Counted from the first letter of the stretch, positions 4,286 to 61,251 are shown. The stretch is DNA of 64,000 nucleotides from an uncultured Methanosarcinales archaeon (GCA_964445165.1 CAYUJZ010000002.1:1737-65736); one strand, 5' to 3'. Numbers and translations are program-made. Notes: a model not told the origin generated them from the sequence alone.

Positions 4286-4411
4286 TTTGAGATAAGCGCC
4301 AGGGGAGGGATTCGAACCCCCGCTCCCAAAGGGACAGGCTCTCAAGGCCTGCGCAATACCAGACTATGCGACCCTGGCTCAGGCAGAAGAGTCTAGCGAA
4401 GCTTTATAAGG
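4286..4411. repeat. 126-bp direct repeat, copy 2
   Basis: Identical to 2448-2573. Its last 19 bp encode the C-terminus (…LIKLR) and TAG stop of the HAD gene at 4393-5001. Confidence 0.9.
4297..4378 (-). tRNA. tRNA-Ser (anticodon UGA), copy 2
   Basis: Sequence identical to copy 1, with the same upstream TATA-like element. Confidence 0.75.
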
Positions 4412-5007: not shown

Positions 5008-6144
5008 TCAGTAAGGGTCCCATTCCTTGATTTCTTCATACTTAGGGAACTTGCCGTAGGGGTACTGCTTAAAAAGCTTTCCCCACTCGGTTTTGTTGAA
5101 CTGGGCTATCTTCTTTTTTCCTGTGGTTGGGTACCACAAGGAGTCGTGGTAAAAGCCTGATGCGAATATAAACATCTTGAACAAGGGTGAATGGAAAAGA
5201 AGGTTGTGGAGCCATTTTATGTTTGATGTGCCTTTCCTTATCCTCTGGTCCCACTTGATTACCAGGCTCTTTTTTGTCTGGAAGCCAAAGTTTAGCCTTT
5301 TGAACTCGCTTTCCGGCATTCCAAGGATTTTTATCCTGTTAAGGCCTGCGTTTCCCAGGCCTGCGTCATCTGCCAGCTTAAGGTACTTGATTCTCAGTGG
5401 GTCAAAGCCCATGATTTTTGCTGCAACTGCATCAATGGCAACCTGGTCGTCACCTGCAAGGATTATGTTTCCTATGTAGGGCTCCATTACCCTGGGGCCT
5501 GCGCCGTCCCCGCATACTGTGCCGTCCATAACCGCAAAGACACTGCTGTGGATTTCTTTCTGTATTGAGAGAAGGTCTACCAGGACTTCATGTATCTTTT
5601 TGTGGGCATGGTGCCTGTACTTTGGGATTAAGCCGCCGAAAGCGTTTTTCATAGCGCCTGTGGTTGTGGTGTGGCCGTGGGTTTTTACAGTAGGGAGGTG
5701 AACTACATTTGAGCCGAAGAACATTTTAGGCACCAGAATCTCGCCGAAAAGGTCTTTCATTGCGAGCATTTTTGACTTTGGCCTGTGGGTTACCCACTCG
5801 ACGTCAGTAAGGGGCTGGTACTTAACCCCGTACTTTTTTAGCATAGGGAGCCATTTGTTGTCGTAGGCGCCTTTCCAGGGGTGTGTGACAACAGTCTGGT
5901 TCTCAACGCCTACTATCTTTTCATAGCCGTCTTTTTTAAGTGTCCTGAGAAGGCCTTCGAGCTGCCAGGGCTGGGTTGAGCAGGCTGGGTAGTAGAGGCT
6001 CCAGGAAAGGTTGAGCTTTATAATGGTCTCTGCTGTCTTTTTTATGATTTTTTCGTATGCACAGAGATGCAGGAGCTTTTCGTAATCATCAAGAACTGTC
6101 TCTGGCGATGTCCTTAGTACCGCAACTTTGCTTTGCATTTTCAT
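5008..6144 (-). CDS. DUF362-like protein
   Basis: 378 aa with IIKLNLSW…P segments and MDGTVCGDGAGP, which is reminiscent of DUF362-family proteins. The match is from memory, not a search. Confidence 0.4.
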   Translation of the reverse strand: MKMQSKVAVLRTSPETVLDDYEKLLHLCAYEKIIKKTAETIIKLNLSWSLYYPACSTQPWQLEGLLRTLKKDGYEKIVGVENQTVVTHPWKGAYDNKWLPMLKKYGVKYQPLTDVEWVTHRPKSKMLAMKDLFGEILVPKMFFGSNVVHLPTVKTHGHTTTTGAMKNAFGGLIPKYRHHAHKKIHEVLVDLLSIQKEIHSSVFAVMDGTVCGDGAGPRVMEPYIGNIILAGDDQVAIDAVAAKIMGFDPLRIKYLKLADDAGLGNAGLNRIKILGMPESEFKRLNFGFQTKKSLVIKWDQRIRKGTSNIKWLHNLLFHSPLFKMFIFASGFYHDSLWYPTTGKKKIAQFNKTEWGKLFKQYPYGKFPKYEEIKEWDPY

Positions 6145-22606: not shown

Positions 22607-23035
22607 CTACTTCTTTCCAGCTTCATGCTCAACAAGCGCTGCCTTCACTGCTTTTAAAGGAAGCATTGCGCACTTTATCCTGTTCACGCCAAGGCTAATC
22701 CCAATAAGCTCTCTTATGTGCTTCTCATCAAGCTTCAAAACCTCAGAAACCTTCAATCCTTTTAGCTCATCAAACAGCATGTCTGCTGAGGCGATTGAGA
22801 TGGTGCAGCCCTCAGCTAAGAAGCCAGCGTCCTTAACTGCCTCGGCTTCAACCTGGAGGTAAACTGTTATCTTGTCTCCGCAGAGGGGGTTTGTGTCATG
22901 AAAGCTTGCATTAAACTTTGGGGGCTTTCGCTGGTTGTGTGGCTTTTCTCCCCTTTCCATTAGCTCATCATACTTTTCGTGGTCTTGCATTTTAGTATTT
23001 CTGCTCAATTTCCCTGAGTGCATCTGCGAGTGCAT
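22607..23035 (-). CDS. sufU: Fe-S cluster assembly scaffold, SufU/IscU (NifU N-terminal-like)
   Basis: Contains …NPLCGDKI…EGCTISIASADML…, the conserved Cys-containing IscU/SufU motifs. The likely true start is the internal MQDHEKY… at about 22990, directly abutting the sufS stop. Confidence 0.65.
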   Translation of the reverse strand: MHSQMHSGKLSRNTKMQDHEKYDELMERGEKPHNQRKPPKFNASFHDTNPLCGDKITVYLQVEAEAVKDAGFLAEGCTISIASADMLFDELKGLKVSEVLKLDEKHIRELIGISLGVNRIKCAMLPLKAVKAALVEHEAGKK

Positions 23036-24197
23036 CTATTTCCTCAAAGGTGTTGTAGAGGTAAAAGCTTGCACGGACTGTGCCTGTCACGCCCAGGGCC
23101 TTGTGCATAGGGATTGCACAGTGGGTGCCTGCCCGCGTTGCTATCTTCCGCCTGTCCAGCAGGGCTGAAATGTCGTGGGGATGGAGTTTCTTATGCACAA
23201 ATGAGACTATCGCGTTCTTTCCATCTAAACAGCCTGCAAAGAGAGTAAGGCTTTTTATATCGCCAAGCCTTTTCAACGCATACTCCAGAATCTCATGCTC
23301 ATACTCCTCTATGTTACTAAGCCCAATTGAAGACAAAAACTCGACTGCTTTGGAAAGCCCATAAGCCTCTACAAAAGGCATTGTCCCTGCCTCGAACTTG
23401 TGCGGGGGCTCTAAAGCCTTGTATCCTCTTTCAGACACTTCTGAAACCATCTCCCCGCCGCCCAGGAAGCAAGGCATCTTTTCAAGCATCTGTTTTCTTC
23501 CGTACAAAACGCCTATGCCTGTGGGCCCAAGCATTTTATGGCCTGAGAATGCAAGGAAGTCAATGTGCTCCAGAGAAAAAGAATGATGAGGAACGAGCTG
23601 GGCGCCGTCACAAATCGTTATTTTCCCAAGCGACTTTGCGTACTCAAAAAAAGAATGGCCTGTTATGAAGCCGGTAACATTGGAAGCGCCGGCCAGGGAA
23701 ACTATGTCTGCATCGGAAACTTTTTTGCGGAAATCAGAAACATCCAACCTTAAGTCTTGATCAAGCCCTACAAAGCTGATCTCTACATTCTTGTATCTTT
23801 CCTTTGCAATCATCCAGGGGACTATGTTTGAATGGTGCTCTGACAGGGAAATGAGTACAGAAGCCTTTCCTTTCTTTGCGATTATCATTCGGACAAGAGA
23901 ATCAGCCAGCAGATTGAGTGATTCTGTTGTGTTTTTTGTGAATATAACTTCCTCGGGCTGGCTGCCGATAAAATCACCAACTTTCTTCCTTGAGTTTTCA
24001 TACAGCTCTGTTGCTTCCTCACTAAGCTTATATACGCCCCTGTGTATGTTTGCGTAGCTTTTTGAGTAGAACTCTTCCATTGCCTTTACTGCTGAGGCCA
24101 GCTTTGGCGTGGAAGCCCCGTTATCGAGAAAGATGTAATTATCCGGTATAAGAACCTCTTTCCTGATTTTATTTACCTGCTCTTTAGTCAAGCTCAT
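22992..24197 (-). CDS. sufS: cysteine desulfurase (class V aminotransferase, SufS-type)
   Basis: 401 aa. Shows the PLP-lysine motif SGHKMLGPTGIGVLYG and the conserved C-terminal GTHCA Cys loop. Confidence 0.85.
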   Translation of the reverse strand: MSLTKEQVNKIRKEVLIPDNYIFLDNGASTPKLASAVKAMEEFYSKSYANIHRGVYKLSEEATELYENSRKKVGDFIGSQPEEVIFTKNTTESLNLLADSLVRMIIAKKGKASVLISLSEHHSNIVPWMIAKERYKNVEISFVGLDQDLRLDVSDFRKKVSDADIVSLAGASNVTGFITGHSFFEYAKSLGKITICDGAQLVPHHSFSLEHIDFLAFSGHKMLGPTGIGVLYGRKQMLEKMPCFLGGGEMVSEVSERGYKALEPPHKFEAGTMPFVEAYGLSKAVEFLSSIGLSNIEEYEHEILEYALKRLGDIKSLTLFAGCLDGKNAIVSFVHKKLHPHDISALLDRRKIATRAGTHCAIPMHKALGVTGTVRASFYLYNTFEEIDALADALREIEQKY

Positions 24198-24996
24198 TTT
24201 CCCACCTCTCTAAGTGCTGCTCAAATTCTTCTTCTGGAAGGTTTCTTAGCAGTATATTCTTTCTTATTAAAATCCTTGCCTCTTCTTCAGAGAGGCCTTT
24301 TGAGTATAAGTAAAACAGCTCTGCCTTGTCATAGCCTCTTGCCAGGGCGCTGTGTGATGCCTTTATGTTGTCGTTGCTTATTTCTATGAAGGGGGATAGC
24401 TCTACCGAGCCACCTTCAACCAGTGAAAAAAGGTCGATTGCGCATGAAACTCCTAAAGCCTTTTCCGGAATAATGGCTTTTGCCCTTACCTTTGACTCTG
24501 CGTAATTCACTGAGTCAAGGCTCAACTTAAAGCTGCTCGCCTCGTAGTGAAATGAATCAATATGAAACTCGGTATCTGAGCTAAAAACTGAAGAAACGCT
24601 AATTCTTGCCTGGCTTTGTTTCTGGCTATCTGACTTAATCTCGCATTTCCCAACATTCCTGCACATCCAGTTTAGGGCAACAGAATCAGCTGGCAGGAAA
24701 ACCATTCTCTTTACTGGAACAGATGAAACAAGATTCAGGACAGAATCCTTTGCATCCGAATAGGCTATTAATGTAAGGGTTTTGGCTTTGCTCTCATTAA
24801 TGCTGATAAAGTTATTGCCGGAAAAAGAAACGAGAACTATCTCTTCCTGCGGGACAATTCCTGCACCAGCATTCCAGCTGCTTAACTCTATGCACTCAAC
24901 AGTCCTGGATAACTTTACTCCAAGCCTCAGAAGCCTTACTCTAACATCTGCAGGAATCCCTGAATACTCTTTTTTTTCAATATTGATTTTTCCCAT
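24184..24996 (-). CDS. sufD: SufD-like Fe-S assembly protein (SufB/SufD family, short form)
   Basis: 270 aa. The C-terminus …AELFYLYSKGLSEEEARILI… matches the SufB/SufD C-terminal signature. Confidence 0.55.
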   Translation of the reverse strand: MGKINIEKKEYSGIPADVRVRLLRLGVKLSRTVECIELSSWNAGAGIVPQEEIVLVSFSGNNFISINESKAKTLTLIAYSDAKDSVLNLVSSVPVKRMVFLPADSVALNWMCRNVGKCEIKSDSQKQSQARISVSSVFSSDTEFHIDSFHYEASSFKLSLDSVNYAESKVRAKAIIPEKALGVSCAIDLFSLVEGGSVELSPFIEISNDNIKASHSALARGYDKAELFYLYSKGLSEEEARILIRKNILLRNLPEEEFEQHLERWENELD

Positions 24997-24997
24997 T

Positions 24998-26359
24998 TTA
25001 GCCTACGCTGTTTTCCATCTGCATCCTGATCAGCTTATTTAGCTCTACAGCATATTCCATTGGAAGCTCTTTCACAATTGGGCTTAGAAAGCCGAGGACA
25101 ATAAGGGTTTTTGCCTCTTCTTCTGAGATGCCTTTGCTCATAAGGTAAAAGAGCTTGTCCTGATCGATTTTTCCTACGCTTGCCTCGTGCTTTACTAGTG
25201 AATTTGTATTCTGGATTATGTTGGTCGGGTAGGTGTTGCTCTTTGAGATGTCATCAAGCAGCAGGGCATCGCAGTTAACGCTGACATTTGAGTTTTCTGC
25301 GGCTTTCAGCACTTTTACCAGACCCCTATAAGTGTGGGTTCCTCCTTTGAATGAGATACCTTTGCCGACTACCTTTGAGCTTGTGTTTTTTCCTATGCAG
25401 ATTACTTTGCCGCCGGCATCTATGTTCTGGCTTTCGCCTGCTGAGGTTATGCTTAGTATGTCGCCTCTTGAGTTATCGCCTTTCAGTATGATTGCCGGGT
25501 ACTTCATGTTTAGCCCTGAGCCAAGGTTTCCGTCTATCCACTCTATTACTGCGTTTTCTTCAGCCAGGCCTCTTTTGGTAGTGAGGTTGAGCACATTCTT
25601 GCTCCAGTTCTGGACTGTGGAAAAGCGCATCCTTGAGTTTTTCTTTGCGAATATCTCTACCACGCCTGCGTGCAGGCTGGCGCTGCTGTACAATGGAGCT
25701 GTGCAGCCTTCTACATAGTGAACTTCTGCGCCTTCGTCTACAATGATAAGCGTCCTTTCGAACTGGCCTGAGCCTTCGAAATTCATCCTGTAGTATGTCT
25801 GGAGTGGCATAGTTAATTTCACTCCTTTTGGAACGTAGATGAATGTGCCGCCTGACCATGCTGCTGTGTTCAGGGCAGAGTACTTATTGTCTGAATAGGG
25901 AATAAGCCTGCCGAAGTATTCCTTAACGATTTCCGGGTGCTCATGGACTGCTTCGTCCATGCTTGAGAATATAACTCCCTGCTTTGCGATTTCTTCCTTA
26001 AGCTTTTTGTAGACAACCTCGGACTCGTACTGGGCTCCGCTTCCTGCAAAAAACTCTCTTTCTGCTTCGGGAATGCCCAGCTTGTCAAAGGTTTCCTTGA
26101 TTTCCTTAGGGAGCTTTTCCCAGTCGCTCTGCTGTGACTCTACTGGTTTTGTAAAAAGCGTTATTTTTGAGAAGTCAATGGGAATCTCGGGTGACCAGGA
26201 AGGCAGCCCCATGGAGAGAAAAGCATCAAGCGCCTTGAGCCTGAGCTCTCTCATCCAGGCAGGGTCTTTTTTTATCTCTGAAAGCTTAAGCACTGCTTCC
26301 TTTGTTATGCCTGGCGGAGTCCTGTATACATAACCCTTTTTGCTGCTTTCGGTTTTCAT
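24998..26359 (-). CDS. sufB: Fe-S cluster assembly protein SufB
   Basis: 453 aa. SufB signature …DKLFYLMSKGISEEEAKTLIVLGF…. Confidence 0.85.
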   Translation of the reverse strand: MKTESSKKGYVYRTPPGITKEAVLKLSEIKKDPAWMRELRLKALDAFLSMGLPSWSPEIPIDFSKITLFTKPVESQQSDWEKLPKEIKETFDKLGIPEAEREFFAGSGAQYESEVVYKKLKEEIAKQGVIFSSMDEAVHEHPEIVKEYFGRLIPYSDNKYSALNTAAWSGGTFIYVPKGVKLTMPLQTYYRMNFEGSGQFERTLIIVDEGAEVHYVEGCTAPLYSSASLHAGVVEIFAKKNSRMRFSTVQNWSKNVLNLTTKRGLAEENAVIEWIDGNLGSGLNMKYPAIILKGDNSRGDILSITSAGESQNIDAGGKVICIGKNTSSKVVGKGISFKGGTHTYRGLVKVLKAAENSNVSVNCDALLLDDISKSNTYPTNIIQNTNSLVKHEASVGKIDQDKLFYLMSKGISEEEAKTLIVLGFLSPIVKELPMEYAVELNKLIRMQMENSVG

Positions 26360-26363
26360 TTAA

Positions 26364-27089
26364 CTAAGAATTTCCATTTATTATGGGCTCAAAGCCTGAG
26401 TCATTTATCTTTCCGGCAAGCTCGATTCCACCCTGCTTCAGGATTTTGCCTTTGTCATAAAGGTAAACCGCATCCACATCAAGAAACTCGAGAATGCGGG
26501 TATAGTGTGTGATTAGCAGGATGCCTTTATCTTTTTTCAGTGATTTCAGAATAGAGGCTACTGACTTAAGTGAGTCTACGTCCAGGCCGGAGTCAATCTC
26601 ATCAATCAGCAGAAACTTAGGGTTCACCAGAAGTGCGGACAGAAGCTCTATTCTTTTTCTCTCACCGCCACTGAAGCCTGTTATCTCTCTTTCCAGGATG
26701 CTCTTTTCCAGGGAGAGCAGGGAAAGCAGCTCCTCTACTCTTTGGGAAAAGTCTTTTGAGCTTTTGAACCTGTGCTTTGAGCTGTTCCACAAAAGGTGGC
26801 GAAGCCTGATTCCTGGAAGGTCTATCGGGCTCTGGAAAACAGCAGCAATGCCTTTTTTTGAAAGCTCATGCGTAGGCAGTCCTGAAACATCTTCATTATT
26901 GAGAAAAACCCTGCCTGAAACTTGGTAAGACGGGTGTTTCATAATTCCGAAGATTAGCGTGCTTTTCCCTGATCCGTTTGGGCCCATCAGGACATGAAGC
27001 TCTCCCTGGCCTATTTCAAGGCTTGCTGAATCCACAATCTTTTTTCCGCCAGTTGATACTGAAAGGCTTTCTGTTTTTAATGTTTTCAT
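26364..27089 (-). CDS. sufC: Fe-S cluster assembly ATPase SufC
   Basis: 241 aa. Walker A GPNGSGKST, ABC signature LSGGERKR, and Walker B LLIDEIDSGLD. Confidence 0.85.
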   Translation of the reverse strand: MKTLKTESLSVSTGGKKIVDSASLEIGQGELHVLMGPNGSGKSTLIFGIMKHPSYQVSGRVFLNNEDVSGLPTHELSKKGIAAVFQSPIDLPGIRLRHLLWNSSKHRFKSSKDFSQRVEELLSLLSLEKSILEREITGFSGGERKRIELLSALLVNPKFLLIDEIDSGLDVDSLKSVASILKSLKKDKGILLITHYTRILEFLDVDAVYLYDKGKILKQGGIELAGKINDSGFEPIINGNS

Positions 27090-46273: not shown

Positions 46274-47449
46274 TTATTTAGGCTTACCTAATAAAGCCTG
46301 CTCAAAAAGCGAATAGGCTGTATCTAAATGCTCCTGCCTAACCTCGTTTTTGAGCTCAAGCCTTGCCAGGGCCTTTGAGAGCCTCAGCATTCCAACAAGG
46401 GTTTTTTCGTTTATGGGAAAAAAGCTTTCCGGCTCTCTTTCCTTAAGCTTAAGAAAAAACGCGGACATTGCATCTTCCAGGCTTTCCGGAAAATAGGGCT
46501 CTCTTGACCTGCAGTAGCCTATGTACTCCCTGGCAAAGATAATGTCGGGGCTTTTTGCTGAGCCGTATACGCGCTTGAGGCCAGGGCTTGAAGGTGAAGC
46601 CGCTGGCTCTTCGTGCTTTGGCTTTTGGCCTATAATTGCCGGAAAGTTAAATGCTCCAGCCATGAGCTCAGGCTGTGGCAACTGCTCAAGAACCTGCTCT
46701 TTTGCCTTGATGAACCTTGTAGGCACAGAAGGAATGAGCCTTGCAACTATGCTTGTCCTGCACTTAATCTTTCTTAGGCGCTGGCTGCGTTTGCCTTCTG
46801 GAACTTCCTGCCCTTTCGAGGGAATGCCTGGGATTAAGGAATGCTCCATTGCCTCAAAAAGCAGCCCAATCTCATCTTCTTTCATCTCACCCAGGCTTGT
46901 AATGAGAATAGAAGACTCATCTGCCTGGGAAAGAGCCTGCTTCAGGCCTACCTTGCCTGTGCTTTCCCCTGGGTCAAAGCTGGAAAAGCCTGGAAGCAGG
47001 TCATCAATGCCAGCCAGCATGGCATCTACCGGAGAATCCCTGTCAGATGCTATCAGAAGGTGAAAAGGGTCTGGGGAACAGAGGAATATTGCCAGGGTGT
47101 CGGTTAAGAAATCCGGCACTGAGCCGGGGCTATAGCTCTTTAGAATTCCAGAGATGTTTTTTAATGCATCAGAGGAGAATCTCCTGAACCACTTCTCAAA
47201 GCTTTTCTCAAGAACCATCTTGTTGGCTACTTCTATAAAAGAATTTGTTGCTTCATCTTCTGTAATCGGGTGAAAAACAGGAAAAGAGAAGCCAAAGCCA
47301 AAGCTTGTTGACAGCTCGGAAAACGAAGCAGTAGCCTTCTTTTCTGACAAAAGCCTCCTAAGCTTCTCCGAATAACTAAAAGGCAGATACTCTTTCACAG
47401 AGCCCAGCGCTCTTGATGAATCTTTGCTAAGTGAAGAAAAGAGGGGCAT
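46274..47449 (-). CDS. MCM-derived AAA+ domain protein with degenerate Walker A/B (likely catalytically inactive), no N-terminal OB/Zn domain
   Basis: 391 aa. By-eye alignment to the MCM core: HLLIASDRDSPV lies at the Walker-A position (the usual sequence is LLVGDPGTAKS). ILITSLGEMKEDEIGLLFEAMEHSLI lies at the Walker B / IHEAMEQQ position (usually IDEFDKM…). The C-terminal IIFAREYIGYCRSREPYFPE… and TLVGMLRLSKALARLELKNEVRQEHLDTAYSLF match the MCM lid / winged-helix region. Confidence 0.45.
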   Translation of the reverse strand: MPLFSSLSKDSSRALGSVKEYLPFSYSEKLRRLLSEKKATASFSELSTSFGFGFSFPVFHPITEDEATNSFIEVANKMVLEKSFEKWFRRFSSDALKNISGILKSYSPGSVPDFLTDTLAIFLCSPDPFHLLIASDRDSPVDAMLAGIDDLLPGFSSFDPGESTGKVGLKQALSQADESSILITSLGEMKEDEIGLLFEAMEHSLIPGIPSKGQEVPEGKRSQRLRKIKCRTSIVARLIPSVPTRFIKAKEQVLEQLPQPELMAGAFNFPAIIGQKPKHEEPAASPSSPGLKRVYGSAKSPDIIFAREYIGYCRSREPYFPESLEDAMSAFFLKLKEREPESFFPINEKTLVGMLRLSKALARLELKNEVRQEHLDTAYSLFEQALLGKPK

Positions 47450-49867: not shown

Positions 49868-51172
49868 TTATTTCTTTTCGAGCTCCTTCTTCACCAGGTC
49901 TATACACATTCCTGCTGATACAGTTACTCCTGAGTCCCTTACTGCAAACCTGGACATTTGAGGAATGTCTTTTTGCTTCTCAATCACCAAAGGCCTTCTT
50001 GGCTTTATCTTGACAATTGCTGCGTCCCCGTTCTTCAGGGTTGTTGGGTTTTCCTCAAGTGTCTCTCCAGTTGCAGGGTTGAGTTTCTTCACAAACTCGG
50101 TAAAGGTGCAGGTTACCTGAGAGGTATGCACGTGGAACACCGGCGTGTAGCCAACAGTCATCGCAGACGGGTGGTTTAATACAACAATCTGTGCTGTGAA
50201 CTCGTCAGCGAGAGTTGGCGGGTTGTCCGGATGACCTATAACGTCTCCTCTTGCAACATCCTTGGAGCCAAAGCCCCTTACGTTGAACCCAATGTTATCA
50301 CCTGGGCCTGCCTGCTTCATTGTCTCGTGGTGCATCTCTATTGTCTTGCACTCTCCGAGAACTCCTCTTCCTTCTCTTCCTGGAACAGCTATAATCTTGT
50401 CTCCAACCTTAAGGACTCCTGTCTCGATTCTTCCGACCGGGACAACACCAACTCCTGTAATCGAGAAGACATCCTGGATTGGAAGCCTCAGTGGAAGCTC
50501 TGTTGGCTTCTCTGGAACGCTTAAGGTGTCTATTGTCTCCAGGAGTGTCTTTCCTGTATACCAGGACATGTTCTCTGACTTCTTTACAACATTGTCTCCC
50601 ATCAAAGAGGAGATCGCTACAAAAGGAATCTGGTCCGGCTTGAACCCGACGCTCTTGAGAACCTTGCTTACATCCTCTTTTACTGCGTTGTACTTTGCCT
50701 GGTCATACTTGACCTTATCCATTTTGTTGATTGCTACTATGATCTGCTGCACTCCAAGAGTCCTTGATAGAAAGATATGCTCTTTTGTCTGTGCATTCAC
50801 ACCATCATCTGCTGCCACTACAATAACTGCTGCGTCTGCCTGGGATGCTCCGGTAATCATGTTCTTTACAAAATCCCTGTGACCAGGGGCATCAATTATT
50901 GTGAAGTAAAACTTGTCAGTTTCAAACTTCTGGTGAGCCAGGTCGATTGTAATTCCTCGCTCTCTTTCTTCTTTGAGGCTGTCCATCACGAAGGCGAACT
51001 CAAAACCGCCTTTTCCGATTCTCTCTGCCTCTTCCTTCAGCTTCCTAAGCTTCTGCTCCTCAACATTTCCTGAGTCAAACAAAAGCCTCCCTACGGTTGT
51101 GGATTTCCCGTGGTCTATGTGTCCAACGAACACAAGGTTTATATGTTCTTTAGCACTTGCCATTTTTTTCAT
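49868..51172 (-). CDS. tuf: translation elongation factor aEF-1alpha
   Basis: 434 aa. G1 motif [10 protein letters not shown] (the archaeal/eukaryotic form), G3 DAPGHRDF, G4 NKMD. Confidence 0.95.
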
Positions 51173-51432: not shown

Positions 51433-52452
51433 ATGCACTGGCAAAAACAGGAAATTAATCAGGGGTTTAATTTGGCTTTTGGCTTTTCTGCATTCTGCTC
51501 ATTCCTGCTTGGGCTTCTGGTGCTGCTTGCTTCCTGCTCTGAAGGGGCAGTTGAGCGTAATGGCTTATATGAAGGCACCGAAGGCCTGAAAATAAGCTTA
51601 AGCTCTCCAAGAACAGAGTATTATGTTAGTGAAGGTGCAGACGGATTTATTGATCAGGTTGAGATTCCGTTCATTCTCGGGCTTGAGAACCTGGGCAGGG
51701 CAAGAATAGAAGAGGAGGGCTTCAGGCTGGAGCTTTTTGGGTTTGACCCAAGGATAATCTCCACAACTCCACGCACATTCGAGGATTTCAACATGGAGAT
51801 GAATGTTATTACACTCAAAGATTCTGCTTTTGAGGGTGTGAGCCTTGCCAGGCCCCTGGGGGACAGAAAAGCAATAACTGGGAGGGACATTGAATTTGGA
51901 ACAAAAAAGGATGCAAGCATTCCCGGAGACAGCTACCAGTTTAACCTGAAGGCCAACCTTTGCTACAGGTATAAGACCTACTTTAGTGACAGTTTTATAG
52001 TTTCACCAAGAGGCAGCCAGCAGGAATTCATTGAAGGAGGGCTTTATGACAGAAAGGATTACGGAGAAAAAGGACAGGGTGCCCCTATTGCCGTTACAAG
52101 GGCTGAGGTGGAGCCGATAGGCAATAAGGCAAGGGTTACCTTTTACATAAAAAGGCTTGATAATGTAGAGATTTATTATAATAGGGATGCTTCTCCGAAA
52201 AAAGATGAGTGTGGCTCTGTCAGGTTTGAGAACAGGAACAAGGTTCTGGTTTCAGGCGTGTGGCTGTCTGGCGCCCAGAAGGCGAGCTGCCTGGAAAAAG
52301 AGTTTTATCTTGATGCCAAGGGCGAAGGAATAATCGACTGCATCTTCGATGAAGGGGTTCCATCATCAAGCGCGAGCACTGTGATTTCGCTTGAATTAGA
52401 GTATGATGTGTTTGACTCAGCGTCACTTGGCTTTAGGCTTAGGAAAATATAA
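51433..52452 (+). CDS. secreted protein with lipobox-like signal (paralog 1)
   Basis: 339 aa. N-terminal hydrophobic segment ending LLASCSEG, with LASC fitting the lipobox consensus. Shares conserved blocks with 52475-53479: LCYRYKTYFSDS, GQGAPIAVT, GNKA, KRLDNVEIY, and C-terminal LELEYDVFD…RKI. Confidence 0.45.
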   Translation: MHWQKQEINQGFNLAFGFSAFCSFLLGLLVLLASCSEGAVERNGLYEGTEGLKISLSSPRTEYYVSEGADGFIDQVEIPFILGLENLGRARIEEEGFRLELFGFDPRIISTTPRTFEDFNMEMNVITLKDSAFEGVSLARPLGDRKAITGRDIEFGTKKDASIPGDSYQFNLKANLCYRYKTYFSDSFIVSPRGSQQEFIEGGLYDRKDYGEKGQGAPIAVTRAEVEPIGNKARVTFYIKRLDNVEIYYNRDASPKKDECGSVRFENRNKVLVSGVWLSGAQKASCLEKEFYLDAKGEGIIDCIFDEGVPSSSASTVISLELEYDVFDSASLGFRLRKI

Positions 52453-52474
52453 AAAAAGAGTGAAGGCAGAAAAC

Positions 52475-53479
52475 ATGATAAGAAAAGTGATTAAACCTAA
52501 CAGGGATAAGAGTTGCCAGGTGTATTTTTTTCTTGCATTAATGGCTGTTTCTGTAATTTTTATTTCTTCCTGCTCTCCGGAAGCAGAGCAAACAGGCCTG
52601 TTTACCGGAACACAGGGGCTAAAGATAAGTGTCTCGGGATTTTCTTCTGAGATACTGCTTCCTTCCGGGATTGAGGAAAGTACAATTATCCCTTTTATTG
52701 CATCAATAGAGAATATGGGCAGGCATACGGTTGGGACAGATGACTTCAAGCTTATGCTTTCTGGGTATGACCCCCAGCTAATTGAGTGTTCTGGAGCCAG
52801 CAATCCTGACTTGCTGATACGAGAATGCGAAGTAACCCTGAATCATGGGCGAACTATTGAAGGCAGAAACACACTCAGAAGAATCGGAGACAAGGTTATA
52901 ATTACAAATGATATGTTTGATTTTAAGACAAGCCCTGAGGGAATTCCTGGCGACATGTACAGGTTTGAATTGCTTTTCTCAATGTGCTACAGATATAAGA
53001 CCTACTTTAGTGACAGCCTGATGCTTGACCCAAATTCTGATTTCCAAAAAATTGATTACAGAGGGCAGGCAAGCATGAGAACACATACCGGAGGGCAGGG
53101 TGCACCTCTTGCAGTTACAGGAATCAGCTCAATTGCTACTGGAAACAAGGCAATTGTTTTTGTTAATGTTAAGAAGATGGATAATGTCCAGGTATACTTT
53201 GATGAGGAAAAGCCCCCGGCAATTCAGAAGTGCGGCTCTGCTTCTTATAATATTAGGGATAGATTCAAGGTCACAATGGCTCAGCTATCAGACTTCACGG
53301 AGCTATCTCTATGCAATGGAAAGACTTTTTACCTCAATGACATGGGAGAAGGCCAGTTTACCTGCGAGTTTGAGCTTGGGAGAGACATCAGAAACGAGAT
53401 AAGCTCTATATTCAACCTTGAGCTTGAGTATGACGTTTTTGACTACACAAAGCAGCCTTTTTCAATGAGGAAGATATAA
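52475..53479 (+). CDS. secreted protein with lipobox-like signal (paralog 2)
   Basis: Start taken at the ATG at 52475 (MIRKVIKPN…), 20 nt after paralog 1's stop. The signal ends FISSCSPE, with ISSC fitting the lipobox. The same conserved blocks as paralog 1 are present, for example MCYRYKTYFSDS, GQGAPLAVT, LELEYDVFD…RKI. Confidence 0.45.
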   Translation: MIRKVIKPNRDKSCQVYFFLALMAVSVIFISSCSPEAEQTGLFTGTQGLKISVSGFSSEILLPSGIEESTIIPFIASIENMGRHTVGTDDFKLMLSGYDPQLIECSGASNPDLLIRECEVTLNHGRTIEGRNTLRRIGDKVIITNDMFDFKTSPEGIPGDMYRFELLFSMCYRYKTYFSDSLMLDPNSDFQKIDYRGQASMRTHTGGQGAPLAVTGISSIATGNKAIVFVNVKKMDNVQVYFDEEKPPAIQKCGSASYNIRDRFKVTMAQLSDFTELSLCNGKTFYLNDMGEGQFTCEFELGRDIRNEISSIFNLELEYDVFDYTKQPFSMRKI

Positions 53480-53596
53480 CGAAAAGATTCAAAAAGTTTT
53501 TAAATGGCTTGATTTCCCTAAAAAACACAAAAGAAATGAAATGCTGCTAATGAAAGTGTTTCAGTAAATGTTTTGTCAACAAGAGAGGTAAACAAA

Positions 53597-53998
53597 ATGG
53601 CAGGAGTTAAGCAGTCTTCGGTGGGAAGCCTTAAGCAGGGAAGCTATGTTGTTATTGATGGTGCTGCCTGCAAGGTTGTGGACATGCAGGTATCAAAGCC
53701 TGGGAAGCATGGGCATGCAAAGGTAAGGCTTACTGCAGTTGGGCTCATTGATGAGAAGAAAAGGGTAATTGTAATGCCGGGGCATGACAGCATTGATGTC
53801 CCTATCATCGAAAAAAAAAATGCACAGGTGCTTTCTATTAGTGGGAACACTGCAAGCGTAATGGAACTTGAGACTTATGAAAATTTTGACCTTGAGATTC
53901 CGGAAGAACTCAGGCAGGAATGTGCAGAGGGCTCTATTGTGCTTTACTGGGACATTCTTGGAGATAGGGTTATGAAACAGGTTAAGCAGGGTGAGTGA
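53597..53998 (+). CDS. eif5a: translation initiation factor 5A (aIF-5A)
   Basis: Start taken at MAGVKQ (ATG 53597). The hypusination loop is SKPGKHGHAK. An OB-fold C-terminal domain follows. Confidence 0.9.
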   Translation: MAGVKQSSVGSLKQGSYVVIDGAACKVVDMQVSKPGKHGHAKVRLTAVGLIDEKKRVIVMPGHDSIDVPIIEKKNAQVLSISGNTASVMELETYENFDLEIPEELRQECAEGSIVLYWDILGDRVMKQVKQGE

Positions 53999-57145: not shown

Positions 57146-57277
57146 AACAATGAGCTGATTGTTGCTTCTTAATAATTTATCTGTTTTTGCTGGATTGGGG
57201 TGTGTCTTTTTTCCGACAAGTATTCACTTTTGAAAGGTTATTAACTTTTATAAAAAACGGCTTAACCAGACTAATGC

Positions 57278-57745
57278 ATGGAAAAGGAAGGGGATACAGC
57301 GACTGCTGATGAGTCCAGGGTTCTTGAGATGCTCCAAGAGATTAATAAGAATGAAGGCTACATTTCCAGGGAAAGGCTTTCTTCGATAAGCAGTAAGCTT
57401 GGAATTCCTCTTTCGAGGCTTTATGGGCTTGTTACTTTCTACAACCAGTTTAACCTTGCGGTGAGTGGAAAATATACTATTGAAGTCTGCGAGGGAACTG
57501 CCTGCCATATCAACAAGAGCAGTGAGATTAAGAGGGCTGTGAACGATGTTGCTGGGATAAGGGTTGATGAGACTTCATCAGATGGGCTGTTTACATTAAG
57601 GGATGTGAGGTGCCTGGGCGCCTGTGCGCTTGCTCCTGTGCTGAGGCTAAACAAGAAGATTTACAGCAAGATGACCTACGAGAAGACTAAAGAGCTGATT
57701 CTTAAGCTTAAGAAAGAAGCGGAGGCTGAAGTGATGCAAAGATGA
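57278..57745 (+). CDS. hydC: NuoE-like [2Fe-2S] thioredoxin-fold subunit (HydC/HndA-type)
   Basis: 155 aa. …LVTFYNQFNL…IEVCEGTACHINKS…RCLGACALAPV… is the 24-kDa-subunit signature with four Cys. Its stop overlaps the hydB start by 4 nt. Confidence 0.75.
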   Translation: MEKEGDTATADESRVLEMLQEINKNEGYISRERLSSISSKLGIPLSRLYGLVTFYNQFNLAVSGKYTIEVCEGTACHINKSSEIKRAVNDVAGIRVDETSSDGLFTLRDVRCLGACALAPVLRLNKKIYSKMTYEKTKELILKLKKEAEAEVMQR

Positions 57746-59496
57746 AGCACATTATCAGGGTTTGCACCTGCACCGGGTGCCAGGCTAACGGCTCGCTTGA
57801 GATTTTTGAGGGCTTATGCAGGGCTGCTTCTGAAAGAAAGAAGGAATGTGAAGAGAAAGGGGTTGAGATTGAGGTTAAAGAAACTGGCTGCATTGGCTTG
57901 TCAGAGACTGTGCCTAATGTGCTGGTTGATCCTTCGGGCATTCTTTATGTTAATGTTAATGAGAACAATGCTGAAAAGATTGTTGACTCTGTAATAAACA
58001 ATTATGTTATTGATGAGATGCTGTTTGAGATTGACGGCAAGAAATACGGCAGGCTTGAGGATGTGCCTTTCTTTGCGCTGCAGGACAGGGTGCTGCTTGC
58101 AAGGTGTGGCTACACTACGCCTCTTTCTCTCTCAGATTATACTTGGTCCGGAGGATTTGAGGGGCTGAAAAAGGCGCTTGATATGCCGCAGGATGAGGTT
58201 ATTGAGATACTCAAGAATTCAAAGCTTCGCGGAAGGGGCGGGGCAGGGTTTCTTACCGGGCTGAAGTGGGGATTCCTGAAGAATGCTAAGGGCGATGAGA
58301 AGTTTCTTGTGTGCAATGCAGATGAGGGTGACCCAGGGGCTTTTATGGACAGGAGCCTGCTTGAGAGCGACCCTTTTGCTGTGCTTGAAGGAATGCTGAT
58401 TGGGGCTTATGCAACTGGCGCAACAAGGGGCTTTATTTACATCAGGGAGGAATACCCGCTTGCGATTGATAAGATTAAGACCGCTATTGATATCCTCAGG
58501 GAGAACGGCTATCTTGGGGACAATGTTCTTGGAAGGCTCTCTTTTGACATTGAGATAAGGAAAGGGGCTGGGGCTTTTGTGTGCGGAGAGGAGACTGCGC
58601 TTATGAATTCTGTTGAGGGCAAGCGGGGGCAGCCGAGGATTAAGCCGCCTTTCCCTGCTGAGAGAGGAATTTTTGGCAAGCCCACTAATATTAACAATGT
58701 CAAGACATATGCTTTTGTGCCGTTAATTTTGAGGAATGGGGCTGAATGGTTCCTTGAGAGAGGAGACGGCAAGTCTGCTGGAGGAACATTACTAATCTGC
58801 CTTACTGGAAAGATTAGGCTTAACGGTGTGGTTGAGGTTAAGATGGGCACTCCGCTCAGAAAGGTTATCTATGACATTGGCGGTGGCCTGAAGTCAGGCA
58901 AAAAGCTCAAAGGGGTTCAGACTGGAGGCCCATCTGGTGGGTGCATCCCTGAACCGCTTATTGACACTGAGATTGGCTATGAGACTATGCAGGGGCTTGG
59001 CTCTATCATTGGGTCTGGCGGGGTTATCTGTATTGATGAGGATGACTCTATTATTGACTTGTGCATTTTTTTCCTGGATTTCCTTGAGAAGGAATCCTGC
59101 GGGCAGTGCACTCCCTGCAGGGAAGGGATTGTCCAGATGAAAGACCTGATTATTAAAATCAAGGAAAGGAAAGCAACTGAGCAGGATATTGCTACGCTTG
59201 AAAGGCTGGCTGTGTATGTAAGGGACAATTCACTATGCGGCCTTGGGCAGACTTCACCTAATGTGGTGCTTTCCTCGCTTAAGTATTTCAGGGATGAGTT
59301 TGAAAGGAAGATTAGCGGCAAGCCGGTTTTTAAGATAAACGGAAAATGCACGGGTTGCCACCTTTGCTTACTTAAGTGCCCTGTTAAAGCTATAACAGGA
59401 AACCCTAAGGAGAAGCATGAAATAATCCAGGATAAATGCATTGGGTGCGGGATATGCTATGATGTCTGCAAGTTCAAGGCTATAGACAAGGAGTAA
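57742..59496 (+). CDS. hydB: NuoF-like NAD(P)H-binding flavoprotein subunit with extra Fe-S domains (HydB/HndC-type)
   Basis: 584 aa. An N-terminal [2Fe-2S]-like domain (CTCTGC). An FMN site GRGGAGFLTGLKWGF. A glycine-rich NAD(P)H-binding segment. The N3 [4Fe-4S] motif ESCGQCTPCREG. Two C-terminal CxxCxxCxxxCP ferredoxin motifs. Confidence 0.8.
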   Translation: MKHIIRVCTCTGCQANGSLEIFEGLCRAASERKKECEEKGVEIEVKETGCIGLSETVPNVLVDPSGILYVNVNENNAEKIVDSVINNYVIDEMLFEIDGKKYGRLEDVPFFALQDRVLLARCGYTTPLSLSDYTWSGGFEGLKKALDMPQDEVIEILKNSKLRGRGGAGFLTGLKWGFLKNAKGDEKFLVCNADEGDPGAFMDRSLLESDPFAVLEGMLIGAYATGATRGFIYIREEYPLAIDKIKTAIDILRENGYLGDNVLGRLSFDIEIRKGAGAFVCGEETALMNSVEGKRGQPRIKPPFPAERGIFGKPTNINNVKTYAFVPLILRNGAEWFLERGDGKSAGGTLLICLTGKIRLNGVVEVKMGTPLRKVIYDIGGGLKSGKKLKGVQTGGPSGGCIPEPLIDTEIGYETMQGLGSIIGSGGVICIDEDDSIIDLCIFFLDFLEKESCGQCTPCREGIVQMKDLIIKIKERKATEQDIATLERLAVYVRDNSLCGLGQTSPNVVLSSLKYFRDEFERKISGKPVFKINGKCTGCHLCLLKCPVKAITGNPKEKHEIIQDKCIGCGICYDVCKFKAIDKE

Positions 59497-59507
59497 AATA
59501 AAGCAAG

Positions 59508-61220
59508 ATGAAAGTAAGGATAAATGATAAGGAGTATGAGTTTGATGCTGGCAAGAGCATACTGGATGCCTGCAGCGAGATTGGGCTGAACCTGCCTACT
59601 TTCTGCCATCATGAGCTTCTTGAGCCAAGGGGGGTGTGCAGGCTCTGTGTTGTTGAGGCTGACGGCAAGCTTGTGCCTTCGTGTGCTACAAAAATCCGGG
59701 AAGGAATGAGTATTGAAACGCATTCTAACAGGGTTATTGAATCCAGAAGAATGAACCTTATGCTTCTGATTGCCGACCATCAGGAGGAGTGCCTTTCCTG
59801 CAATAAGTCTGATGACTGCCTGCTTTTCAAGTATGCAAATGAGTATGATATTCATGCTATTCCTTTTGAAAAAATCCAGAAAGAGAAGTTTGAGCCTGAT
59901 GAGTCCTGCTACTCTTTCAGAAGAGACCTAAGCAAGTGCATTAAATGCGGGAAGTGTGTTGAGGTGTGCAATGTGCTTCAGAAGGTTTATGCTATTGAAT
60001 ACTCTAAAAGGGGAAAAAGCCTTAAGATGTCAACTGCCTTTGAGTATCCTATCAAGGAGACGGAATGTACGTTCTGCGGTCAGTGCGTGCTTAACTGCCC
60101 TACATGCGCGCTTGAGGAGAAGTATGAGGCTTCTGACTTGATGTGGGCTATTAATGACAAGGAGACTGTGGTTGCCTGCCAGGTTGCGCCGAGCATCAGG
60201 GCTTCAATAATGGAAGAGTTCGGCAAGAACGAAGGCATTACTGTTGGAAAGCTCGTTTCTGCACTTAAGATGATTGGGTTTGACTATGTTTTTGACACGC
60301 AATTCGGCGCTGACTTAACCATCATGGAAGAAGCTAATGAGCTTTTAGAGAGGATTAAAGAGAATAAAAACCTGCCAATGTTTACCTCGTGCTGCCCTGC
60401 GTGGGTTAAGTTTGTAGAGGATAATTTTCAGGACTTTATCCCTAGCCTTTCTTCATGCAAAAGCCCACAGCAGATGCTTGCGAGCGTGTTCAGGACTTAC
60501 TTTGCGGGGAAGCTTGAAAGCAAGCCTGAGAACATAAAGCTTGCATCAATAATGCCATGCACTGCTAAGAAAACCGAGGCAAGAAGGTATGAGTTTATTG
60601 GAGACATTGACTTTGTGGTTACTACCAGGGAGCTTGCCAGGATGATTAAAGAGTTTGGGATTGAGTTTGAGGCGCTTGAGGAAAGCGAATTTGACTGCCC
60701 ACTTGGCGAGTCTTCTGGTGCTGGTGCGATTTTTGGGGTTTCAGGAGGGGTCTGTGAAGCTGCTTTGAGGACTGCCTATGAAACTGCTACTTCAAAAAAG
60801 CTTGAAAAGGTGGAGTTTGAGCAGATCAGGGGAGTGGATTTTTTTAAGCATGGTGAGATTGAGATAAACGGGAAATTTGTGAGGTTTGCTGTGGTGCATA
60901 CTCTTGGGAAGGCAAGAGACCTGCTTGAGCAGATGAGGAAGGGCGAAGCTCACTATGACTTTGTGGAGGTTATGGCGTGCCCTGGAGGGTGCATTGGCGG
61001 TGGGGGGCAGCCTATCCCAACTAATATGAAAACAATAAAGGAAAGGATGCAAAGGATTTACACGATTGACCAGCGCAAGAAGGTAAGAAGAAGCCATGAA
61101 AACCCTGACATTATCAGGATTTACGGTGAGTTCCTTGAAAAGCCGCTCAGTAAAAAGGCGCATGCGCTGCTTCACACTAAGTATATGAAAAGGAGCTATT
61201 ACTCTGATAAGAAGGGCTAA
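59508..61220 (+). CDS. hydA: [FeFe]-hydrogenase catalytic subunit HydA (M3-type with N-terminal 2Fe-2S and 4Fe-4S domains)
   Basis: 570 aa. A 2Fe-2S ferredoxin-like N-terminus (CHHELLEPRGVCRLC…SC). His-ligated and 2x[4Fe-4S] motifs (CIKCGKCVEVC, CTFCGQCVLNCP). All three H-cluster motifs are present: L1 FTSCCPAW, L2 MPCTAKKTE, L3 EVMACPGGCIGGGGQP. Confidence 0.85.
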   Translation: MKVRINDKEYEFDAGKSILDACSEIGLNLPTFCHHELLEPRGVCRLCVVEADGKLVPSCATKIREGMSIETHSNRVIESRRMNLMLLIADHQEECLSCNKSDDCLLFKYANEYDIHAIPFEKIQKEKFEPDESCYSFRRDLSKCIKCGKCVEVCNVLQKVYAIEYSKRGKSLKMSTAFEYPIKETECTFCGQCVLNCPTCALEEKYEASDLMWAINDKETVVACQVAPSIRASIMEEFGKNEGITVGKLVSALKMIGFDYVFDTQFGADLTIMEEANELLERIKENKNLPMFTSCCPAWVKFVEDNFQDFIPSLSSCKSPQQMLASVFRTYFAGKLESKPENIKLASIMPCTAKKTEARRYEFIGDIDFVVTTRELARMIKEFGIEFEALEESEFDCPLGESSGAGAIFGVSGGVCEAALRTAYETATSKKLEKVEFEQIRGVDFFKHGEIEINGKFVRFAVVHTLGKARDLLEQMRKGEAHYDFVEVMACPGGCIGGGGQPIPTNMKTIKERMQRIYTIDQRKKVRRSHENPDIIRIYGEFLEKPLSKKAHALLHTKYMKRSYYSDKKG

Positions 61221-61251
61221 TTTAATAAATAATTTTTCTATTTCTGAATTT

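Follow-up and report, generated by a model that had tools for sequence, protein, structure and literature searches.

Three consecutive genes, hydC, hydB and hydA, occupy positions 57278-61220 of a 64,000-nucleotide stretch of archaeal DNA deposited under the name of an uncultured Methanosarcinales archaeon (GCA_964445165.1, CAYUJZ010000002.1:1737-65736; this whole stretch is hereafter the window). Judging from their sequences, we consider it probable that these genes encode a cytoplasmic heterotrimeric [FeFe] hydrogenase of group A3 (HydABC/Bfu-type) that would confurcate electrons from NADH and ferredoxin to H2 in a woesearchaeotal host. What is new here is a clean, lineage-restricted loss of the entire B2/Zn site of the flavoprotein subunit HydB, together with a ligand change at its B5 site.

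A preliminary description of the window had reported three co-directional, overlapping genes. Open reading frames (ORFs) were found at exactly the positions it gave, all on the plus strand; hydC and hydB do overlap, by 4 nt (ATGA), whereas a spacer of 11 nt lies between hydB and hydA. The genes, and the sites on which the argument rests (all on the plus strand), are as follows.

57278-57745, plus strand: hydC, 155 amino acids (aa), NuoE-like thioredoxin-fold [2Fe-2S] subunit carrying cluster C1
57742-59496, plus strand: hydB, 584 aa, NuoF-like flavoprotein for flavin mononucleotide (FMN) and NAD(H), with B5, B1 and B3/B4 domains and without the B2/Zn site
59508-61220, plus strand: hydA, 570 aa, [FeFe] hydrogenase catalytic subunit, M3-type
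57763..57903, plus strand: B5 region of HydB, aa 8-54, with Cys8, Cys13 and Cys50 kept and Ser54 at the fourth ligand position
58231..58269, plus strand: FMN-binding glycine-rich loop of HydB, GRGGAGFLTGLKW (motif and alignment of relatives)
58339..58347, plus strand: AFM motif of HydB, Ala200-Phe201-Met202 (PGAFMDR), invariant in the clade alignment
58924..58938, plus strand: GGPSG motif of HydB, aa 395-399 (QTGGPSGG), invariant in the clade alignment
59047..59049, plus strand: Ser436 of HydB, at the position of A. mobile Cys438 (alignments)
59092..59238, plus strand: cluster B1 of HydB, N3-type [4Fe-4S], Cys453, Cys456, Cys459 and Cys499
59287..59346, plus strand: shortened linker of HydB, aa 516-535, in which Lys523 replaces the B2 His
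59347..59469, plus strand: C-terminal ferredoxin domain of HydB, B3 and B4, with two C-x2-C-x2-C-x3-C motifs
59604..60098, plus strand: accessory clusters of HydA (ligand positions; spacing as in CpI and T. kivui HydA1)
60381..61013, plus strand: H-cluster motifs P1, P2 and P3 of HydA (motif positions and structure alignment)

Cofactor ligands and bifurcation motifs

H-clusters of group A are defined by the motifs P1 (TSCCPxW), P2 (MPCxxKxxE) and P3 (ExMxCxxGCxxGGGQP), which supply four ligand cysteines and a proton-relay cysteine. In HydA, P1 is FTSCCPAW (residues 292-299, with Cys295 and Cys296), P2 is MPCTAKKTE (349-357, with Cys351) and P3 is EVMACPGGCIGGGGQP (487-502, with Cys491 and Cys495); all four ligands (Cys296, 351, 491 and 495) and the relay Cys295 are thus present. 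All three signatures had been noted in the preliminary description, and they are intact: the alignment with T. kivui HydA1 is free of gaps within the motifs, and no ligand cysteine is lost. The N-terminal 2Fe-2S and 4Fe-4S ferredoxin domains that it also listed are confirmed by Pfam and have full sets of ligands, comprising Cys33/44/47/59 for a [2Fe-2S] cluster, His91 and Cys95/98/104 for a His-ligated [4Fe-4S] cluster, and Cys144/147/150/154 and Cys187/190/193/197 for two further [4Fe-4S] clusters, which completes the accessory set of an M3-type enzyme. The Pfam domains of HydA are Fer2_4, NADH-G_4Fe-4S_3, two Fer4 (Fer4_7), Fe_hyd_lg_C (E 8e-95) and Fe_hyd_SSU. The protein passes the cutoff of TIGR02512 ([FeFe] hydrogenase group A; 473.7 bits, cutoff 406), and lies about 5 bits short of that of NF040763 ('NADH-dependent [FeFe] hydrogenase, group A6'; 760.4, cutoff 765). 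Its best match among solved structures, from end to end, is T. kivui HydA1, an electron-bifurcating enzyme (8a6t_A, E 1e-173), followed by the HydA subunits of A. woodii and T. maritima and then by CpI.

HydC has the NuoE-type thioredoxin fold (2Fe-2S_thioredx, PF01257, E 2e-43) and all four ligands of the C1 [2Fe-2S] cluster (Cys71, Cys76, Cys112 and Cys116); its best solved matches are NfnC (9n5u_C) and the HydC subunits 8a6t_C and 7p5h_C (E 1e-31 to 1e-38). In HydB, Pfam identifies Complex1_51K, SLBB and NADH_4Fe-4S domains, with 2Fe-2S_thioredx at the N-terminus and 2x[4Fe-4S] at the C-terminus, and the solved matches 7q4v_B, 8a6t_B, 7p5h_B, 7t2r_B and 9n5u_B extend from end to end, with E values of 1e-163 to 1e-181; sequence matches of this strength (E below 1e-160) settle the fold. 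The solved families matched by HydB and HydC accordingly comprise NfnABC (9n5u), NiFe-HydABCSL (7t2r) and HydABC (7q4v, 8a6t and 7p5h). Both HydB motifs cited in the preliminary description are present, the FMN motif GRGGAGFLTGLKW at residues 164-176 and the N3 cluster motif ESCGQCTPCREG at 451-462. Residue 171 of the FMN loop is leucine; the same position is occupied by proline in 108, leucine in nine and serine in three of the 120 HydB relatives aligned. The B1 ligands (Cys453/456/459/499) are invariant in all 120, and so are all eight cysteines of B3/B4 (Cys536/539/542/546/566/569/572/576).

Bifurcating and non-bifurcating beta subunits are separated by three features: the AFM motif, a Phe in GAGA-F-xCGEE, and GGPSG (Losey et al. 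2020, PMC7311640; Feng et al. 2022, PMC8880783). HydB has the bifurcating state at all three (3/3). Besides the AFM and GGPSG motifs listed above, Phe279 lies in GAGAFVCGEETAL (GAGAFVCGEE; Phe, not Tyr) and is invariant in the clade alignment. The earlier designation 'electron-bifurcating-like' is therefore borne out as far as AFM, Phe, GGPSG, B1, B3/B4 and C1 are concerned, and it fails at the B2/Zn site, which is missing.

The organisation of the genes is also that of group A3, hydA adjoining, in the same orientation, a gene for a NuoF-like diaphorase and one for a NuoE-like 2Fe-2S protein, and the hydCBA cluster is present in all archaeal relatives examined. Architecture, gene order, cofactor motifs and solved matches together support the trimeric HydABC architecture proposed earlier. 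Compared with the solved bacterial HydABC enzymes (T. kivui 8a6t, A. woodii 7q4v and T. maritima 7p5h), the window enzyme has the same subunit set and domain order and shares the ligands of A1-A4, the H-cluster, B1, B3, B4 and C1 as well as AFM, Phe and GGPSG; at 570 aa, HydA lacks a C-terminal A5 domain, as do those of T. kivui and A. woodii. It differs from the solved bacterial enzymes in lacking the Zn (B2) site, in the Ser54 and Cys10 of B5, in Leu171 of the FMN loop, in its archaeal host and in a putative archaeal-type promoter. The top-scoring solved matches to HydB and HydC are the NfnB and NfnC subunits of NfnABC, the archaeal Nfn-Bfu enzyme of Thermococcus sibiricus (9n5u_B and 9n5u_C), the Bfu core of which bifurcates with a redox-inert metal at B2 and B5 (PMC12018979). 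However, the A subunit of NfnABC is an NADPH/FAD module and not a hydrogenase, and its B2 and B5 sites still bind Zn, while the B2 ligands of the window HydB are gone.

Loss of the B2/Zn site and alteration of B5

In [FeFe] enzymes, B2 is a stoichiometric, redox-inert Zn held by three Cys and one His. Across Bfu-type subunits the site holds Zn or a 2Fe-2S cluster. With A. mobile HydB as the reference for numbering, it is ligated by Cys438, (Cys476), His525, Cys531 and Cys536, of which Cys476 is semi-conserved (PMC8880783), and the presence or absence of the site was scored from alignments on this basis. In the window HydB, Ser436 takes the place of Cys438 and Lys474 that of Cys476, Lys523 stands in place of the His, and a deletion of about 10 residues from the linker has taken out the C-P-A-x-x-C (C-x4-C) pair. 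The protein holds just three His, none of them near the B2 position. Two cysteines, Cys430 and Cys441, flank Ser436 (ICIDEDDSIIDLCI, aa 430-441, 59029-59064), but they are confined to the lineage formed by the window and the Woesearchaeota genome SpSt-1178, other B2-less relatives carrying Ala, Val or Leu at these positions, and they cannot restore a site built from three Cys plus a His.

The full site, made up of the Cys plus the H...C-x4-C linker, is present in 229 of 246 HydB proteins and wholly lacking in 17, with no mixed cases. An alignment artefact was rejected as an explanation, since three independent alignments agree and the pattern is all-or-none across this set. Those of the 17 that are named all derive from metagenome-assembled genomes (MAGs) of Woesearchaeota or Nanobdellota; bacterial HydB relatives, Thermosipho among them, keep the site. 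We also rejected the idea that B2 loss is a general DPANN trait, as the HydB proteins of an Altiarchaeales MAG and of a 'Nanoarchaeota archaeon' MAG retain it. Loss of B2 together with a kept C-terminal ferredoxin domain was seen in only three of the 150 best profile matches from a library of 1.84 billion representatives, two of these being Woesearchaeota by name. The cluster formed by the window HydB at 90% identity includes HDP73701.1, from a Woesearchaeota MAG, which is automatically annotated as NuoF. In a neighbor-joining tree of 124 sequences, the B2-less proteins are monophyletic, while in one of 246 sequences they form five pure clades; given this disagreement, a single origin of the B2-less clade is not established.

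The main texts of Huang et al. 2021 (PMC8421398) and Greening et al. 2024 (PMC11216029) make no mention of zinc or of a B2 site, and in the archaeal hydrogenase papers and the Bfu survey consulted we found no mention of B2 loss in Woesearchaeota or Nanobdellota. On balance, we lean towards regarding the HydABC enzymes of these archaea as natural 'B2-less' Bfu hydrogenases, in which FMN, B1, C1, B3/B4 and the diagnostic motifs are kept, B2 is deleted as a whole, and, in the lineage of the window, the B5 ligands have been re-wired.

Two side observations concern the form of HydB in other Woesearchaeota. In one (contig L086, 6042-7976), the B2 linker is not deleted; its place, with the four-helix bundle on one side and the ferredoxin domain on the other, is taken by an insert of about 50 residues (…EEPVMEDIESGHKKDVPKDETQKDDKSAEKSS…) that is acidic and has no Cys. 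Here the metal site has been lost by another route. In a woesearchaeotal sub-clade (L084 5713-7872; P0126-P0128), the HydB proteins are 679-722 aa long, about 100-140 residues more than the 584 aa of the window protein; the extra residues fall outside the aligned N-terminal, B2 and C-terminal ligand regions.

The N-terminal thioredoxin-like domain of HydB (PF01257, E 1.5e-7), which should hold B5 in the pattern C-x4-C ... C-x3-C, is altered in two ways in this lineage. Residue 54 (TCA, 57901-57903) is Ser in the query alone, 119 of the 120 relatives having Cys, and an additional Cys10 (57769-57771), unique among the 120, lies within the C-x4-C loop. The HydB of SpSt-1178, 90% identical to that of the window, has the identical Ser54 and Cys10 state, and we therefore consider both changes real; a sequencing error was rejected on this ground and because an independent assembly differs at only one of 3943 nt. 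Serine ligation and ligand swapping are known in thioredoxin-like [2Fe-2S] ferredoxins.

Coupling to NADH and ferredoxin

If the enzyme acts as we propose, it would dispose of fermentation reductant as H2. NADH would be oxidised at the FMN of HydB, and reduced ferredoxin would give electrons via B3/B4, at the C-terminus of HydB, and via C1, the mobile cluster of HydC; the two streams would merge at FMN-B1-C1 and then pass through the Fe-S chain of HydA to the H-cluster. Such confurcation would in principle be reversible. The enzyme would have to work without B2/Zn and with a Ser/Cys-swapped B5, and to be matured without recognisable HydEFG nearby. Formation of the complex, the coupling of NADH with ferredoxin, and the physiological direction are inferred from the following features. 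We favour confurcation because the predicted electron path is complete (FMN-B1-HydA chain-H-cluster, and C1-B3/B4-ferredoxin) and is accompanied by motifs of the bifurcation type; because all three subunits match those of solved bifurcating enzymes from end to end; because HydB keeps two domains that non-bifurcating enzymes are without, the 2Fe-2S domain at its N-terminus and the 2x[4Fe-4S] domain at its C-terminus; and because the ferredoxin-docking domain has been retained under selection. A further reason is the gene neighbourhood in the B2-less woesearchaeote with the acidic insert, where hydCBA lies directly downstream of a cluster encoding a four-subunit 2-oxoacid:ferredoxin oxidoreductase (POR) and a small ferredoxin. 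The same function has been assigned to the A3 enzymes of Woesearchaeota and other DPANN archaea in the literature (PMC8421398, PMC11216029).

Several points weigh against this reading. The disappearance of every B2/Zn ligand places the window HydB outside the definition of a bifurcating BfuB as regards this site, and Schut et al. 2022, whose BfuB set included no archaeal FeFe-HydABC, reported that 1550 of 1558 BfuB proteins have the B2 His and that non-bifurcating homologs do not. Furlan et al. proposed that the Zn site serves as a hinge on which the C-terminal domain moves, and a 2024 paper stated that the full B1-B5 set appears necessary for bifurcation. At B5, a Cys that is otherwise nearly invariant has become Ser54, and in T. 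kivui removal of the entire B5 domain cut bifurcation about tenfold. For the A3 enzymes, Greening et al. drew on structural modelling (PMC11216029). Finally, a screen of the window (64 kb, approximately 55 ORFs) and of some 10 kb of additional contig detected no HydE/F/G-like or radical-SAM genes.

The missing B2 ligands could mean that coupling has been lost and that the enzyme is a non-bifurcating multimeric hydrogenase, exchanging electrons between H2 and NAD(H) only, in the manner of S. wolfei Hyd1ABC or S. aciditrophicus HydAB, or between H2 and ferredoxin only. Those enzymes (PMC7311640) also combine a multimeric HydA with NuoF/NuoE-type partners; the window HydB resembles the non-bifurcating homologs of Schut et al. 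in having no B2 His, and lacks the B2 Cys as well; the B5 site is weakened by Ser54; and the nearest NCBIfam model to HydA is one named for NADH-dependent enzymes of group A6. We nonetheless consider this reading unlikely. The non-bifurcating beta subunits that have been characterised, those of S. wolfei and S. aciditrophicus among them, have other residues at the three diagnostic motifs (Thr/Ser...Lys/Ser/Ala, Tyr, and no GGPSG) and a smaller number of [Fe-S] cluster-binding domains (PMC7311640). The window HydB has the bifurcating state at all three motifs and retains both the 2Fe-2S domain at its N-terminus and the 2x[4Fe-4S] domain at its C-terminus, the latter with eight invariant cysteines. 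A ferredoxin-docking domain under purifying selection is hard to explain without coupling to ferredoxin. Moreover, B2 in the solved FeFe enzymes is a redox-inert Zn, and its loss may be tolerable for confurcation because the cryo-electron microscopy structures of 2025 (PMC12018979) put the bifurcation site at FMN, B1 and C1 and treat B2 as non-essential.

The absence of maturases bears on a different alternative, namely that an enzyme encoded by intact genes stays inactive or cryptic in vivo, in an organism that has no HydE, HydF and HydG to build the [2Fe]H subcluster. The preliminary description had already remarked that no hydE/F/G genes lie in the window; this holds there and equally in the added flank (about 74 kb in all), and no maturase-like gene was recognised among the radical-SAM neighbours of hydA in relatives. 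Candidates for hidden maturases among these neighbours were rejected, that of the distant woesearchaeote L083 being of DUF512/NirJ-like type with weak scores, and that of contig L085 being of a DNA-repair type adjoining photolyase. However, the three subunits are 88-94% identical between two species with all ligands kept, which points to purifying selection on a working enzyme, and of the genome only some 74 kb were covered by the maturase search. DPANN genomes with A3 [FeFe] hydrogenases usually have no maturases according to Greening et al. 2024 (PMC11216029), a pattern with which our result agrees; these authors pointed out that the H2-producing archaeon Ca. P. syntrophicum is also without maturase genes, and argued for an alternative maturation route. 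An inactive enzyme therefore seems to us improbable, and NADH- and ferredoxin-dependent confurcation remains the reading that we prefer.

The composition of the minimal bifurcating core is in dispute, the full B1-B5 set being held necessary on one side, FMN, B1 and C1 alone on another, and a Zn hinge on a third. A lineage that is free of B2 and conserved under selection offers a natural test case for these competing models. If B2-less enzymes bifurcate, they would be natural knockouts, neither the B2 metal nor the Zn hinge would be needed, and the minimal FMN-B1-C1 flavobicluster model would be supported; if they do not, the confurcating H2 metabolism published for these DPANN archaea would need revision. 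The lineage also counsels caution in calling an enzyme 'bifurcating' from its A3 gene organisation alone.

Host, chromosomal context and neighbouring features

The host is an archaeon, as the preliminary description had supposed from the markers in the window, which include aIF5A (53573-53998), EF-1alpha (49868-51172), STT3/AglB (7429-10350), an MCM-lid protein (46274-47449) and an archaeal-type ProRS. Its suggestion of a DPANN-like organism was likewise correct: in a scan of species-representative genomes, the nearest named one is Ca. Woesearchaeota archaeon SpSt-1178 (DSBS01000042.1), which has the same gene order, keeps every ligand, and is identical to the window at 88% (HydC), 90% (HydB) and 94% (HydA) of positions. 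The next relatives of HydA are unnamed or Woesearchaeota MAG proteins with 53-64% identity, and the closest named non-archaeal ones are those of Marinitoga and Thermosipho (Thermotogota; about 48-51%), a ranking that agrees with the published placement beside Thermotogae (PMC8421398).

That affinity to Thermotogota could be taken to mean that bacterial DNA was misassembled or mis-binned into an archaeal contig, the more so as no other part of the window, not even an island of 27% GC, has a less typical tetranucleotide profile than the hyd segment (r 0.85 versus a median of 0.94). The other evidence makes this highly improbable. An identical HydA is encoded by two other contigs, an independent one of 128.7 kb from ENA and one from JGI. 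Across hydCBA, the former differs from the window at one of 3943 nt, and it has the same neighbours as the window, in the order S10, EF-1alpha, aIF5A, M50 protease, Dus, GCD14/TrmI, hydCBA, NAD synthase, pyrimidine-dimer glycosylase and, eventually, aEF-2. In the ENA assembly and in SpSt-1178 alike, hydCBA joins GCD14/TrmI on its left side and NAD synthase on its right side, and the right junction recurs in the JGI contig too. The left junction is shared in part with the distant woesearchaeote L083 (HydA 62% identical), which keeps Dus-GCD14-hydCBA. In GC content, GC content at third codon positions (GC3) and codon usage, the hyd genes deviate from other window genes by no more than about one to two standard deviations, and a TATA-like element stands at archaeal spacing upstream. 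The contamination check recommended earlier (GC and tetranucleotide composition) thus gives an ordinary GC and an unusual tetranucleotide profile, and synteny and the independent assemblies remove the concern. We rejected a chimeric or contaminant contig on these grounds, the tetranucleotide oddity not being decisive; it may stem from a Cys/Gly-rich composition and strong purine skew, or from incomplete amelioration of an old transfer. Because the independent assemblies and the cross-species synteny agree, hydCBA is a long-resident chromosomal locus of a Woesearchaeota (DPANN) lineage and not an assembly artefact.

As an operon type, the locus has been documented before, and it is a further member of the described A3 group of Woesearchaeota. 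Huang et al. 2021 (PMC8421398) described group A [FeFe] hydrogenases from Woesearchaeota of subgroups B, E, G, H and J, the majority being trimeric with nuoF-like and nuoE-like genes, classed as A3 and with conserved metal-binding cysteines, in a DPANN clade near Thermotogae and Bacteroidetes; the supplements of that paper contain no match to SpSt-1178. Greening et al. 2024 (PMC11216029) extended A3 HydABC to at least six DPANN phyla and tied it to carbohydrate-degrading Woesearchaeales. The earlier statement that [FeFe] hydrogenases are uncommon in archaea is, in view of these two studies, out of date. The window enzyme does not differ in any essential respect from those described: the gene set, H-cluster motifs, host phylum, affinity to Thermotogota and typical absence of maturases are alike, as is the predicted role in fermentative confurcation of NADH and ferredoxin. 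For their model of an A3 complex, Greening et al. used an Altarchaeota member, and the Altiarchaeales HydB that we sampled keeps B2, unlike that of the window. The locus adds one more well-assembled, clearly chromosomal Woesearchaeota A3 hydrogenase, and lends support to the idea that certain DPANN archaea produce H2 by fermentation.

Two candidate expression signals and a set of Fe-S assembly genes were also read from the window.

57247..57254, plus strand: TATA-box-like element TTTATAAA, 24 nt 5' of the hydC ATG (sequence reading)
61233..61245, plus strand: T-rich run TTTTTCTATTTCT, 3' of the hydA stop (sequence reading)
22992-27089, minus strand: complete SUF Fe-S assembly set, comprising a SufC-like ABC ATPase (26364-27089), SufB (24998-26359), a SufD-like protein (24184-24996) and a class-V aminotransferase / SufS (22992-24197)

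The distance between TTTATAAA and the hydC start is the usual archaeal spacing; we infer that the element is an archaeal promoter, from which the hydCBA transcript would be leaderless or nearly so. TTTTTCTATTTCT is possibly an archaeal oligo-T terminator. The SufCBDS set is the likely supplier of the Fe-S clusters of HydABC. A DUF362 protein is encoded at 5008-6144 (minus strand), and a DUF362-Fer4 fusion (L086 734-1918) stands beside the POR-hydCBA cluster of the woesearchaeote mentioned above; DUF362 proteins may be a recurring Fe-S partner.

Elsewhere in the window, a complete tRNA-Ser(TGA) gene lies within each of the two copies (2448-2573 and 4286-4411) of a direct repeat that is perfect over 126 nt. 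The single 556-aa ORF between the copies (2592-4262, minus strand) has a GC content of 27% and a GC3 of 23%, compared with a window mean of 43%, and shows no match in Pfam or PHROGs; no integrase is visible. The segment 2448-4411 has the appearance of a short piece of foreign DNA that was inserted at a tRNA gene and duplicated its target. At 51433-53479, two neighbouring ORFs of 339 and 358 aa, paralogous and with a slight overlap, match no family in Pfam, PHROGs or NCBIfam. They have N-terminal hydrophobic, lipobox-like segments and similar C-terminal halves ending in ...LELEYDVFD...RKI, and their position is conserved in the 128.7-kb ENA contig (L001).

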